64,000 nt of DNA from Centroscyllium fabricii (lineage: Eukaryota): assembly GCA_051313645.2 (NCBI GenBank), contig JBNRSN020000011.1:77500001-77564000 (forward strand). The letters run 5' to 3'. Below the pieces are notes generated by a model. It saw nothing but the letters and a program-made list of their open reading frames with translations. It did not search any database and was not told where the DNA came from. Position numbers and translations under genes: made by a program. Below, in pieces: positions 17,892 to 58,072 of this stretch (position 1 is its first letter; each line of letters opens with the position of its first letter).

Positions 17892-20362
17892 CTGAGAGAG
17901 AAGAGAGAATGAAATAATTAAATTCAGTGCATTTAACCTTCCGTCTATCCTTTCTAACTGCGGTCACTTTCTTGTAAGGCCCAAGGTACATCACTCATTG
18001 AGTTATATAATGGGATATATCCCGTGTAAATAAATCTTTGTGTTGGAGTAATATTCAATTAAGGATCTTCATTTAATAAGGAGAAAATGACATCATTGAC
18101 ACAATCTCCAAAGGGATCCCATTATGGGAGGCAAAATATAAATTTATTGACAAACTCAAAGCTGTACCTTTTCAATTGTATTTTGATTTGGGGGGGGGAG
18201 GGTCATTGCGAGAGCGACTCTTATACAAGAAAGACAGGCGTCCTGCCATACCACGCTCAACAAACTCCAAGCTATCTATGTGTGTCCGATCCTCACTGCA
18301 TAGACAGAATCCACCAATTTAGGGCGTAGATCTATAACAAATATGAAATAGTCTAGATTTTTGTAGATTATGCTATTAAAATTATGGACATTCTGCTTTT
18401 AAGGATTTAGTCGTTTCTAAATGTGCAGATTCCATTGGATTTGTTTCCTCAAATCGACGCATTCAAATTTAAACTCACATTTTAAACTCGCTCAACGGTT
18501 CAACACCAGGATTTATTAAAATGTTTATTTGGAAAATGTACAATCTGACACAGTTCCCAGACAGTGTGCAGTTAATCCTGTTTGTTTCCCATTATTGGTC
18601 TATTTCAGTGTAAATTCCTCACACACAGTTGAAGCCAATCTGTCACTCTGGAAACATCTCCTTCACAGTTTGGAACAGATTGAAAGGGCAGTAATTTGCA
18701 TCGTGTGGGAAGATGTGCATCATGTTTGTGATGGTCTGAAAGTTAGCTTTGGAAACTTCTGAGAAACGAATCCCTGGGGTTTTAAAAGAATATATTTTGT
18801 GGCATTGCTGCAAATTCCCAGTACAAATTGCGATTATAATCGATGCGTGCGCTGGGATGGGTGGAAAGTATTGCTTTGGATTACTGGGGGAAAGAGGTGT
18901 TGCAGGACTAGCTCCAGACAACGTATATTGTATGAGCAGTGCAATTTTCAGTAATGTTATACAAGCATAGGGCTGCTCCTCTCTAAACAACCTAAACACA
19001 ACCTCAATAAATGAGCCGACATCACCCATTTTCCATGACACAGTTGAAGCCAATCTGTCACTCTGGAAACTCGCAGCCACAGGCTGGACCGATTGAAAGA
19101 AAACTGACGTATCTTCTCACTTGTGGAGTTAGTTGCGCATTAAATACTGTTTATTTTCAAATTTTCATCTTTTTTCCTTCTGCAAGGTAAAATCCATGTA
19201 AATATCCCGCGACTGGGCATGGGATTGGAATGCTCCAGTATTTTGGAATTACTTTGGAGTCTAGTCCCTGATAAGATTTTACTGGGTTTGCCAAACCAAC
19301 TCAACGTTATGAACAAACAATGTATTACATATTAAAATTAAAGGGCGACTCAGAAAGTTGCGCAGTTATCAATCTATTCTGGAGGAACTTGCTGCCCTAT
19401 AAAAGTATTCACAGCTCTAGACACATAACCTGACCATATTGGCACATGATTTCTCTCTCCCGTTCCAAACGTTTCGTGATATTTAATAAAAATGGGGAGG
19501 AAATAATTTTAATCCATAGAATAAGGTTTAAGGGGGAACTGGCTGGAAATTGAGAGGCTATCTATGGTGCCAACGGGTTGGTGTTGCGAAGGGCTTGACT
19601 GGAGACAGGGAAATATACTGGTGTCTGACCTGTCCCATGGTGATGACGGTGGGCGATGGGGTATTATCACTTTCCTGCTGAGTCTGAAGGTATAGAGTTG
19701 TAGTCTGTGAATATATAGTGTGTGGGCCTATTTTCTGGGAACATTCTACTAAAGGTGTCTGGCTAGCCTTCCTCTCCCCTGTCTAATATTCTAGGCTTCC
19801 ATTCCAGCCTAACCTGCTGATATGACATATTTTCAAAACGTCAAGAAAATGAATAACGTGACTGACACAATGCAGGGCCTGTGGAGATTTTTTAATGAGC
19901 CCGGTCTCCCTCTCAAAGAACATAGCGCAGTTGGCCATCGATCTGAATTGGCCATTGAGAAGAACATAGGTTTGGAGTTGGACAATACACTATCGATGCA
20001 AGTGTTTCAACTTGTAGCGTCTGTTGTTTTGACTTTCACTTATAATTATTCACCATATGACTTGGGGACATGATTCTCAATCTGAAGACACCTATTGTTT
20101 CAAGTGTGATGAGCTCCTCGCCGTTTTCTAACATTTAGACCTATGATCGTCCGCAAACTGTCTCCAGTGCAATTCGAAACTCCAATATTGAATTGCGATC
20201 ATCTTTGAGCTTTAATAGTTACATGCTCCTATTAATGTTGCATTGTCGCTATGTATATCTCTCTTAAGAATACCTCTCAGTCTTTGCTTTGTTTTCTCTT
20301 CTCTTTGTCCCCCCCCCACCCCTTCCTGCTTGTTTCATTCCCCAGCTTTAGTCTTGATAAAG

Positions 20363-20398
20363 GGTCTTGATAAAGGGTCCCAACCCGAAACGTCGACT
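20363..20398 (+). ncRNA. Minimal hammerhead ribozyme-like motif (Penelope-derived)
   Basis: GGTC-TTGATAA-A-GGGT ccca ACCC-GAAAC-GTC-GACT: stem I, U3-A8 core, stem II, GUC cleavage triplet. Confidence 0.55.
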
Positions 20399-22222
20399 CT
20401 CTTTCCAGCATTTCTGTTGTTGTTATGTATATATGTGTGTTGTATAGTCTGCCTTTGTACTATATACATTCGACCCAAATGTGTTGTACGTTCTGTCCAT
20501 ATACATACATTCTACGCGTTGTGTATTCTGCTCATGTGTTGCATATATTCTACTCACAATCAAAATCGGTATAGCAGGTTTTTTAAATCAGTACGCCCCT
20601 TTCAAATTTCGTTTATAACCGGATAGCAGAGCGTTCACTGATGTGCAGTTTGAAATCCGCTTTTTGCTGCTGACTTGTTACTGTTTAATTTGCTGTTTCG
20701 CAAAAATGGTGACCTCTGTTTCATTTGTATTACGTAAAATGAATATCTTCTCAACCGGTATGGCTGAAACTTCATCTCCCCCCAGTCTATAGCACTTGTG
20801 AAAGTCATGACTACGTTACATTGCGTGGCACTGGTGTGCTACCTCAACGACAGTAAAGGGGAACGTGACCCGAATGAAACGTTCCTGAAGTTCAGAAGAA
20901 GACAATACTCACTCATAACTCTTTTAAAGATTACATTAACCAGTCAAACGGAAGAAGCGCCCAACTGAATTAATTTGAAATGTATTCTCCATGATGAAGC
21001 GCTCACAGCATTTTAAGCAACAATTTTCTATCGATATGTTTACTGGCAGCTTTCTTGCTTCTGGGTGCCGCTTGATGACATCATGATTTAAAATAAAACA
21101 CTACAGCAGAAAACGGGCATCGATTGCAGGATTTAATAAACCAGAGCTGGGACGCACAGAAACAAAATATTTATTTTCTGAGTAGGAAAAACACTGGCCA
21201 ATATTGTGCACCCAAGTTCAGACAGCATGGGGTAGTCTGCCCTGAAACTAATATTAATAACAAAGAGAAGGAAGGCAAAAGGACATCAGAAGCATATTCC
21301 TTTCACTTCTATTTCTGCAATTAATCTGTTGCCATTTTTGAAGTTTGCTTTTAACTGCGTGTTTACTGTGTGAATGAAGGCAGCGCCTGATCAGCCAGAT
21401 CACTGAATGTCCAGTCCAGTCCCAATCACACTGACACTGAATCCCACTCCCTGTATGTTAACATTCTCTGGAACATAAAAGCTCGACGCAAGGTCCACCA
21501 TCATTTATGCATAATGTTTAGCCTTTGATTTTAAAAAGTCGTTACAGAGTGAAAAAACAGTGTAACTTTGGAATCCGGCACAGAAATAAAATGATCCCTG
21601 TTAGCAAATTCTTGCAATTGTGAATACCAACATTCATTGGTTCTTGTACGCTCTATGTGATAAATGATAAACAATTTTGCATATTATATATAAAGGAGTA
21701 TGCGAATATGTCTGTGTCCACATCTAACCTGGCCGTAATGGCTGGGACTCGCAGTTAGAAGGAATCTCATTTCTGATGACAAAAAGCCGCAACAGACAGC
21801 GTCCGTTCACCCTAAAAGCAGGCTGCTCCCGCTTTTTTCATATTAGCGAAATTATTTCTTATTATTTTCTACAATATTGAAGGAAAATAATAAAACAGCG
21901 GGTGTTGCCTTTAGTCTGTATAAAAGATCACTTTGAGCTGAATAATTTATTTAATTGAAAGCAAAGAGTTGGACAACGTTGTTTGGTCATCGGCTGCTGT
22001 TAGCAAAGGCAAAACATACCTAGCAACAGAACCTGCAATGATACCCAGTGTTTAATATATGGGCAGTAAACAGCGAGGGAGCGGTACAGTGTCACTAACC
22101 TGTGAAGACAGCTACCCTCCCTACCCACTTTATCCAATCAATTATACCAAATGGTGAAATATGCAAATAAACTGTTGCAGAAAGTCACTCTGGAGTCAAT
22201 ATTAAATGGAATAAGATGGTAC

Positions 22223-56299: not shown

Positions 56300-56673
56300 A
56301 CATAGAAACAAGGAGGAGTAGGCCATTCGGCCCTTCGAGCCTGCTCCGCCATTCAATGAGATCATGGCTGATCATCCAAATCCAGTACCCTGTCCCTGCC
56401 TTGTCCCCATATCCCTTGATCCCTATCGAGCCTGCACCGACACATATCCCACCCTATCCCCGTAACCCCACACATTCAACCCCCTAACACTAAGGGTGAA
56501 TTTATCCTGGCCAATCAACCTAACCCGCACACCTTTGGACTGTGGGAGGAAACCGGAGCACCCGGAGGAAACCCACGCAGACACGGGGAGAATGTGCAAA
56601 CTCCACACAGATAGTACCCGAGGCTGGATTTGAACCCGGGTCTCCAGGGCTGTAAGGCAACAGTGCTAACCAC
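56300..56673 (-). mobile_element. HE1-like V-SINE, slightly 5'-truncated
   Basis: Same V-domain and tail. Confidence 0.86.
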
Positions 56674-58035
56674 TTTATACCTGGGCTTAGGGGTGGAGCC
56701 AGCTGAGGCATGCCCAGACATGTTCTGTACAGGCAGATTAGTGGTTTACCACATTCACAATTTGGCATTGTTCAAAAATTTACAAATTGTACTTCCGATT
56801 CCAGACTTAAGAAATTCAAATCTCTGATTAAAGGAAACAGTAAAGACTTACCTACATTGTTGCTGCTTAAAATAATTTGATGCAAATATAAGCAAAGCGA
56901 GGAACATAGGGTGCACTATCTGCATCAATTAACTTGTCATTTCTTACTTTCAATCATTCACAACAATATGCCATTCTTTTCAAGTGCCAGCAAGCTTTTC
57001 TTTTGGCCTCAATAGTCAGTGAAGCCTGTAAATTGGTTCACAGCAATTATTCCCGTCACTGAATTAATGCACAACTTTTCTAACTTCAAAATCTTTTTAA
57101 ACATGGTTGCTAGTGACATGGTTAAATCTAAACCTCATTTGTTATAAAACCACAGTGATCATTTTGGTTGCTAAAGCTAACATTATGTCATTCGGGTCTT
57201 GTCCAGGCCCATGTCTCAATCCCACACACAGAACAGGCACAGTGTTTCTTATTTTGAGATATATATACATGCTCATGTGACAAAGTTTATAAAGATTCTA
57301 TTTTGCTCCATGCCCAATACAGTCACCCTCACAATAAATTCATATCTGATCCAAGCATTGAATTCCAATATAGAACTTTCCATTTCTATAGAACTTCTGA
57401 TCCAAACATTAAATGCTTCCCAATTATGTTTTATTAAAAAGAGATGCAGCGCACAACATAGTCCACAGACAAATGTCAACTTGAGACAGTGAACCATTTT
57501 AATAGCCTATAATCACAGCAGGGTAAAATGTTATAACTTTTTTCTGTTGGTCATGTTTAGGTTGAATTACTGACTGATACAATTAGTTACAATTATGGTA
57601 TGAGAATTTATAAAGTTAATTTCGTGGCAAATCACACATTAATCAGGATTCAACAGTAGTTGAAAACGACCTCTACTTTAAAATATATATATTACAAAAC
57701 AAAAACAATTTGCTGATGGTTTAGTGGCTAAATGCATAATGTGATCCATGCAGTTAGCTGATGTCAGCCAAAGACAAAATTGGGTTCAGGATCTCAGCTA
57801 GAGATGGGGATATTTGGCCAGAATTCCAACTCTTGATCACTATCCAATGACTCCTACAAGTACCTGAACAGTGAAACGCATCAGCTGTGATCAGTTAAAT
57901 AGCCCATGAAGTTCACATATGAAACTTTATTATAACTTTTACAATTACACTAATTCAATGCGAGTGAGATAAATACTCCTATACTTCATTTGCATTTCTT
58001 TAATTAGAATGGCTGTAACTCTTTTCTACTACGTC

Positions 58036-58072
58036 AGTTCTGACAAAAGGTCATCGACCTGAAACGTTAACT
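58036..58072 (+). ncRNA. Minimal hammerhead ribozyme-like motif at the start of a Penelope pLTR fragment (to ~58138)
   Basis: AGTT-CTGACAA-A-AGGTC atc GACCT-GAAAC-GTT-AACT; G8 appears lost, probably by CpG decay. Confidence 0.48.

Follow-up and report, generated by a model that had tools for sequence, protein, structure and literature searches.

Minimal hammerhead motifs in a 64 000-nucleotide stretch of the Centroscyllium fabricii genome and their probable origin in a Neptune-type Penelope-like element

A stretch of 64,000 nucleotides from the elasmobranch Centroscyllium fabricii (assembly GCA_051313645.2, contig JBNRSN020000011.1, positions 77,500,001 to 77,564,000; hereafter the window) contains a dispersed repeat of about 110-140 nt, in which a motif resembling the minimal hammerhead ribozyme is followed by a pyrimidine-rich tail. 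A preliminary description of the window had placed this motif at 20363(+), 39641(+), about 39610-39645(-), 58036(+), 31651(-), 37630(+) and 4711(-) and had ascribed it to a Penelope-derived family. All seven motifs are present at these coordinates and represent six insertions, since 39641(+) and 39645(-) are the two arms of a single one. One insertion, that of 4711(-), also carries the end of an open reading frame (ORF). In this study, we analysed the motifs, the ORF-bearing insertion and the boundaries of the individual copies, together with contigs from public sequencing runs. The motif is real and the attribution to Penelope was correct, while the covariation claimed for its stems had been overstated. 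Very probably, a Neptune-type Penelope-like element is the source: the motifs are minimal type I hammerheads of its terminal repeat (pLTR), and the copies in the window are 5'-truncated, decayed and likely inert insertions.

Hammerhead motifs and the ORF-bearing insertion

A family pattern running from stem II to the cleavage triplet, built from the copies themselves, has exactly seven matches in the window; among 100 block-wise dinucleotide shuffles it was absent from 99 and matched once in the other. The extra A after A9 noted in the preliminary description, a base left unpaired between residues 9 and 10.1, is found in all seven copies. The palindrome ACGT that had been said to replace helix III is present in six of the seven, but 37630 reads ACAT, so that its positions 15.2-16.2 are CA and not CG. 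The cut positions had been placed correctly, with N17 at 20394 (GUC) and at 58068 (GUU); the cleavage triplet is GUU in six copies of seven, and pair 10.1-11.1 is G-C in two, G.U in two and A-U in three. The full conserved core (the 3-8 pair, U4 G5 A6, A9, G12 A13 A14, A15.1-U16.1 and H17) together with helices I and II is retained in a single copy, 20363, which has a helix I of 6 bp and a helix II of 4 bp, and each of the remaining six carries at least one core or stem lesion. This copy is also the only one of the seven to pass a generic minimal-hammerhead descriptor with a paired 3-8 (it is matched twice through its 13-bp duplication); the descriptor also finds one match in 10 of 100 shuffled windows. 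The preliminary description had proposed a comparison with the type I hammerhead of Rfam, in which no hammerhead family matched at E ≤ 10, either in the window or in two short stretches. Covariance model R1 was built on three copies, and its top three matches are therefore present by construction. Of seven sequences folded as single copies, none was more stable than its shuffles (z -1.36 to +0.65). The dimeric hammerhead was not the minimum-energy form of 20363 or 58036 in unconstrained co-folding of two copies, a method that does not model the core.

The connection with Penelope-like elements is provided by the insertion at 3804-5519, which is bracketed as a whole by a target-site duplication (Table 1). 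Read on the element strand, it consists of the duplication, an inverted tail and linker piece, a tail, the GIY-YIG end, a 3' non-coding part, the hammerhead, a tail and the duplication again. The 97-aa open frame reads VYCIRCSRCGLLYIGET... and contains the CCHH residues of a GIY-YIG endonuclease (VYCIRCSRC..YIGET..EH..CH). It is 53-70% identical to 18 of 20 longer relatives and 75% and 93% identical, over short stretches, to the other two. The four of these 20 that bear species names, at 62-68% identity, belong to Rhincodon, Leucoraja, Rhinoraja and Chiloscyllium, all sharks or skates, in agreement with the elasmobranch family proposed earlier. A whale-shark protein to which the piece is 60% identical has the layout reverse transcriptase (RT), C-x4-C-x2-C linker, GIY-YIG, and relatives P0003 and P0016 match Pfam RVT_1 with E-values of 9e-5 and 0.008, both below the cut-off. 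The inverted linker piece (CKRRRCNTC, 5365-5458) matches the linker of the whale-shark protein (P0003 318-346) in 16 of 29 residues, with an E-value of 3e-10. The hammerhead of 4711(-) lies on the same strand as the GIY-YIG piece, and it is at this one insertion of the six that linkage of hammerhead and ORF is established; the GIY-YIG end and linker attached to this copy bear out the earlier claim of minimal type I hammerheads in Penelope-derived repeats.

The 4711(-) copy had been labelled degenerate. It does have a G5>A lesion, but its motif is also interrupted at the cleavage site by an element of about 793 bp and resumes at 3917. This element is probably a non-autonomous DNA transposon. 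It sits exactly at the cleavage site, between GTT and AACT, a position that may simply reflect a TTAA-like target. A second copy of about 790 bp, 75% alike, lies at 8603-9382; the element is very abundant in public runs X1, X6 and X14 and nearly absent from X11, in which the Penelope family is present and both flanks of the element show depth.

Contigs from these four runs, out of 21 listed, counted over the best-supported entries only, support both rearrangements of the ORF-bearing insertion; X14 is only guessed to be RNA, and contigs reveal no starts or ends. Loose ends at 5459 run from the linker piece into the start of the GIY-YIG piece in at least 120 contigs of X1, 34 of X6 and 88 of X11. 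Joints from 3915 to 4711-4714, which connect the head of the 4711 copy with its tail and skip the inserted element, are seen in all four runs, the joint 3915-4712 in at least 19 contigs of X1, nine of X6 and three of X14. Summed contig depth in X1 is 1.1-2.5 million over the GIY-YIG piece, 2.66 million over the tail and about 10 over the flanks, and ORF-bearing and tail contigs have depths of the same order in X1, X6 and X11; such depth is no copy number and cannot rank the parts, and indicates only that ORF-bearing contigs are plentiful. Among viral and metagenome contigs the tail pattern had no match, and no relative emerged when the metagenome contigs were scanned at the protein level.

Individual copies, insertion signatures and neighbouring repeats

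The features of the six insertions are collected in Table 1. In the head-to-head insertion the direct arm ends 102 nt past N17, and its motif, 39641(+), has U3.G8 and a C.A closing pair in helix I. The motif of the inverted arm, 39645(-), has U3-A8 and a helix I broken by two mismatches, because the other arm, in reverse complement, makes up its 5' strand. A transcript across 39550-39775 folds into a single long hairpin (-164.8 kcal/mol). At 39631-39660 this insertion looks chimeric, its first 16 nt fitting the subfamily of 20363 (15/16) and the remainder that of 58036, and this apparent chimera would account for its C.A and G.U closing pairs. Four pieces consist of tail only (5291-5355, 5459-5506, 38874-38914 and 59827-59871), and the cleavage site is the starting point of none of them; that the piece at 3917 starts there is due solely to the inserted element of about 793 bp.

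Table 1. Coordinates of the hammerhead-bearing insertions and their parts in the window
Feature	Position	Strand	Details
Target-site duplication of ORF-bearing insertion, 15 bp	3804-3818	+	identical to 5505-5519; brackets whole insertion
Stem I 3' strand and tail of 4711 copy	3819-3917	-	beyond inserted element; joints 3915 to 4711/4712
Unrelated element of ~793 bp	3918-4710		G7/C7-8 inverted ends; inserted at hammerhead cleavage site
5' part of hammerhead to N17	4711-4743	-	G5>A; ~250 nt past stop codon of endonuclease piece
3' non-coding part between ORF stop and hammerhead	4744-4995	-	pyrimidine-rich
C-terminal GIY-YIG endonuclease piece of Penelope-like ORF	4996-5289	-	97 aa, open to stop codon
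Upstream tail piece	5291-5355	-	partial tandem with ORF piece; 97% to 39641(+) tail
Inverted 5' segment	5365-5506	+	C-x4-C-x2-C linker piece 5365-5458, then tail piece 5459-5506
13-bp tandem duplication of motif's 5' half	20353-20378	+	second U3-A8 half-core at 20354
Minimal hammerhead, sole copy with full core and both stems	20361-20400	+	U3-A8, G10.1-C11.1, GUC, N17 at 20394
Old diverged copy	31569-31693	-	69% to 39641(+); C3.C8 mismatch; weak or broken helix I; no duplication detected
Core-truncated copy without CUGA	37627-37724	+	end 68 nt past N17; possible 14-bp duplication, 2 mismatches, within null
Tail-only fragment without hammerhead	38874-38914	+	no duplication detected
Left target-site duplication of head-to-head insertion, 15 bp	39539-39553	+	one mismatch to 39775-39789
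Head-to-head insertion	39554-39774	both	inverted arm motif 39610-39645 (-), direct arm motif 39641-39676 (+), joined at 39643
Left target-site duplication of 58036 copy, 11 bp	58020-58030	+	identical to 58137-58147
Solo hammerhead and tail insertion	58031-58136	+	motif 58036-58072, N17 at 58068, end 68 nt past N17
Tail-only fragment without hammerhead	59827-59871	+	no duplication detected

Both stems had been described as covarying. Two genuine base-pair swaps set two subfamilies apart, U-A versus C-G at 2.1-1.1 of stem I and A-U versus G-C at 10.1-11.1 of stem II. Stem I is broken in 39641(+) and 39645(-). In the alignment of six model-aligned copies, for which a cut of E ≤ 0.001 excluded rows 57380 and 250 as well as the true but diverged 31651 copy, two of the nine pairs show two-sided changes, both contributed by row 20363; this score was reached in 154 of 500 shuffles. 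Covariation across copies is not significant in this window. The significance obtained from a nine-row alignment (2 of 500 shuffles) was rejected, rows 57380 and 250 being chance matches that supply two double changes. Each of the two subfamilies preserves the closing pairs of both stems, but with bases of its own.

The swap of the 3-8 pair to U3-A8 had been reported for two copies. As a true swap it would be confined to 20363: 58036, in which both helices are kept, has a C3.A8 mismatch, and the A8 of 39645(-) fits decay. At positions 7-8 the arms of the head-to-head insertion have TG in one and CA in the other, the two decay products of one CpG, and the consensus of 45 loose contig ends in X6 has C3, C7 and G8; the A8 of 58036 and that of 39645 are thus most readily explained by post-insertion damage. 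The U3-A8 of 20363 is itself one step away from a decay product, and the contig consensus of the commoner subfamily is C3-G8.

Target-site duplications above the null were found for three of eight hammerhead or tail candidates, whose edges were picked by eye: one of 15 bp, exact, one of 15 bp with one mismatch and one of 11 bp, exact, with scores of 15, 12 and 11, whereas the highest score among 150 random pairs was 10. The 3' ends that carry duplications, at +68, +68, +97 and +102 nt from N17, form two classes about 30 nt apart. Inverted 5' ends are present in two insertions (3819-5504 and 39554-39774). The 5' starts of three of the six insertions lie within about 10 nt of the core, and that of a fourth (31651) about 13 nt before it; the 5' ends of the short copies are spread over as much as about 20 nt, one being inside the core. 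A fold-back at the 5' end is clear only at 39643 (46 bp scored), and those at 58036 (score 5; 9.6% of 2000 random sites), 49810 (score 6; 3.6%) and 31651 (score 3) were rejected as too weak to serve as evidence. A possible extra fragment of a hammerhead head (CTGACGA then AAGG, +) lies in a short palindrome at 49801-49830; it is weak on its own, and borders what is presumably a piece of the RT of a long interspersed nuclear element (LINE).

Several other repeats occupy the window. A long terminal repeat (LTR) retrotransposon lies at 41417-46620, with LTRs at 41417-42350 and 45703-46620 that are 94% identical; on its minus strand a PNMA-like gag (E 1e-38) and an rve integrase (E 1e-9) are recognizable in a coding region broken into several pieces. 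A repeat of about 400 bp resembling a short interspersed nuclear element (SINE), with a LINE-like 3' end, occurs at 51007-51402, 54987-55388, 56300-56674, 60095-60515 and 62805-63520 in copies that are 83-95% alike, and we take it to resemble the elasmobranch HE1 type. Tandem arrays with a 66-bp period are found at 15185-15737 and 7408-7539, the larger with a 252-codon open frame on the minus strand (15047-15805). A nearly perfect palindromic element of about 100 bp lies at 40385-40487, one arm-like stretch of which loosely matches repeats near 4117-4169; a mir-974 match at this place is spurious and produced by the palindrome. An open frame at 50126-50716 matches Pfam ALKBH8_N (E 3.5e-19); it is probably not a host gene but the terminal part of a LINE ORF. 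An assembly gap of 223 N lies within a GT-rich simple repeat at 35789-36011.

Origin and spread of the copies

Derivation from a Neptune-type Penelope-like element agrees with the position of the motif behind an ORF end, the linker and the insertion signatures, and several points weigh against it. The Pfam GIY-YIG match of the window piece (E 0.005-0.017) is below the curated cut-off. A tblastn search of the window with 21 proteins detected neither a further ORF piece nor an RT, and missed the linker piece as well. As far as the sequence goes, the 20363 and 31651 copies are tied to Penelope solely by similarity to other copies. Four of the eight candidates have no duplication, and that of one more, 14 bp with two mismatches, lies within the null (12 of 150 random pairs score as high). 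Random truncation would not predict the clustering of 5' starts at the ribozyme. Finally, X1 has a depth trough of 0.22-0.87 million over the 3' non-coding part, which fits either truncation at the ribozyme or divergence between subfamilies.

By analogy with work on Anolis and Schistosoma, the protein of the element, an RT-endonuclease, would nick AT-rich DNA. Reverse transcription would then be primed within the RNA, at either of two positions downstream of the ribozyme that in this family lie about 68 and about 100 nt beyond the cut, and uncleaved RNA would be copied through the ribozyme; a copy with the whole motif must derive from uncleaved RNA. Copying may often stop or fold back near the 5' edge of the ribozyme and would thus leave solo and head-to-head copies. 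A helix III without a loop cannot close in one copy, and ACGU can pair between two; in the source element helix III would therefore form only between two copies via this palindrome, or with help from the element protein. Cleavage of the source element would follow GUU or GUC and be slow. GUU is a poorer cleavage triplet than GUC. Nowhere in the window does one complete motif lie next to another on the same strand, and the transcript of the head-to-head insertion forms one long hairpin; the copies are likely unable to cut.

The preliminary description had suggested that the family spreads in a SINE-like manner without the ORF. The ORF is not missing from the family: one copy carries the GIY-YIG end together with the zinc-finger linker, and the four public runs are rich in ORF-bearing contigs. 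The data are explained by 5' truncation of an autonomous element, without recourse to a separate SINE-like family, though one may exist. According to this alternative, which we consider improbable, the short copies form an independent unit of about 110-140 nt that lacks the ORF, is either SINE-like or a non-LTR retrozyme monomer, has source loci of its own and borrows the Neptune protein. The 5' ends do cluster at the ribozyme in three to four of the six insertions, but they are non-identical (up to about 20 nt apart), with one inside the core. Contigs join the tail directly to the head of the ribozyme (joint 4734-5327; at least nine in X11 and two in X1), so that head-to-tail units lacking the ORF do exist at low depth; the window holds no tandem of two complete motifs on one strand. 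Retrozymes derived from pLTRs have been reported from one chondrichthyan genome (bioRxiv 10.64898/2026.07.22.740005), and pLTRs are mobilisable in trans (PMC3846280). In the window, however, no tRNA-like head was detected, 58036 and 37630, both of them short, have stem II and its loop in common with the ORF-linked 4711, and the depth of ORF-bearing contigs in X1, X6 and X11, though not a copy number, is similar to that of tail contigs.

It is very unlikely that at least one copy, most plausibly 20363, is a working ribozyme retained by the host to cut a transcript. This copy has the full core, U3-A8, GUC and both stems, and folded alone its two-helix form is the minimum-energy structure, but the ensemble frequency of this form is 0.28 and its z-score -0.87; once the upstream duplication is included, the core is sequestered in a different helix. 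No dimer partner lies near 20363, no host gene was identified and a single minimal motif of Schistosoma did not cleave (PMC4209133). That the hammerhead resemblance is a chance property of an ordinary repeat is hardly credible, since the absence of an Rfam match, the non-significant covariation and the descriptor matches in shuffled windows are outweighed by the placement of the motif as in the literature, in a pLTR after the ORF, by features beyond the needs of the core (the extra nucleotide after A9 and the palindromic 15.2-16.2) and by closing pairs that two subfamilies keep with different bases.

Within the Neptune-type reading, the start of the short copies may be a boundary of the RNA itself. 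On this rather doubtful proposal, a spliceosomal 3' splice site lies in helix I, splicing rebuilds helix I and switches the ribozyme, and internal priming in the 5' pLTR sheds ORF-less, hammerhead-headed units of 110-140 nt that would spread as a family of their own in cartilaginous fishes. In both copies with upstream sequence, 4711(-) and 20354(+), which represent both subfamilies, a pyrimidine run (75% and 85%; 4744-4790(-) and 20310-20352(+)) terminates in an AG that coincides with the first two bases of helix I, and the loose-end consensus of another subfamily in X11 has a CTAAC branch-like motif ahead of the same point. We offer this as a hypothesis only, because the whole strand is pyrimidine-rich and other splice-acceptor-like AGs are present, including in the tail. 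In the Penelope element of Drosophila virilis an intron ends at the 5' end of helix I (PMC4209133); if the splice-site reading is true, it links the Penelope intron and the ribozyme in a vertebrate, a link so far described for D. virilis.

Comparison with known systems

Minimal hammerheads in fish Neptune elements were described by Cervera and De la Pena 2014 (PMC4209133). Those motifs share with the present copies the type I topology, a palindromic helix III, the unpaired nucleotide between 9 and 10.1, a helix I of 4 bp, the U3-A8 variant, pairs on opposite strands and a preponderance of single motifs from truncated elements; the extra A, the palindromic helix III, U3-A8, opposite-strand pairs and solo copies are therefore not new. 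The copies in the window differ in a helix II of 4-5 bp, against 7-8 bp in Schistosoma, in pair 10.1-11.1, which is A-U in three and G.U in two of the seven whereas G-C is conserved there (a trend, not part of the descriptor), and in their prevailing GUU triplet (six of seven). In Schistosoma dimers of the motif were cleaved weakly and, as noted above, a single motif was not. Two supplement files of the same paper contain no shark terms, and a literature search, which lay outside most subscription papers and repeat databases, found no paper describing a hammerhead-bearing Penelope family in sharks or rays. The finding adds one host group to a known class, the hammerhead-bearing ends of Penelope elements.

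According to Craig et al. 2021 (PMC8557442), Neptune elements have the layout RT, CX2-5CxxC linker, GIY-YIG. The C-terminal GIY-YIG, the linker, 5' truncation, partial tandems and an inverted 5' copy are common to those elements and the insertions studied here, and the optional tail of 30-40 bp described there matches the two classes of 3' end. The window, in contrast, holds no RT and no full-length copy, and the assignment to Neptune is by layout and not by tree. Non-LTR retrozymes (Cervera and De la Pena 2020, PMC7229834; Li et al. 2026, bioRxiv 10.64898/2026.07.22.740005) are likewise ORF-less, have a type I hammerhead, are derived from or related to pLTRs and occur as dispersed monomers. 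They are, however, defined by at least two consecutive tandem units with complete hammerheads, of which the window has none; Li et al. trace the retrozymes of animals back to pLTRs, and one chondrichthyan is among their genomes.

The Poseidon element PAc of Anolis carolinensis (Frangieh et al. 2024, PMC11167929) shares the pLTR hammerhead, AT-rich targets, two classes of 3' end downstream of the ribozyme and insertions that keep the whole ribozyme, as from an uncleaved template. PAc belongs to another clade, and its ORF starts inside stem II. Its two end classes mark two internal start sites of reverse transcription, and in the Anolis assay ribozyme mutants inserted normally and cleavage needed the protein (PMC11167929). 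Head-to-head inversions flanked by duplications are common among Penelope-like elements (PMC3846280). To map the points at which reverse transcription begins and ends in these elements, a vertebrate family that is very abundant, has two end classes and often forms fold-back junctions would be well suited.

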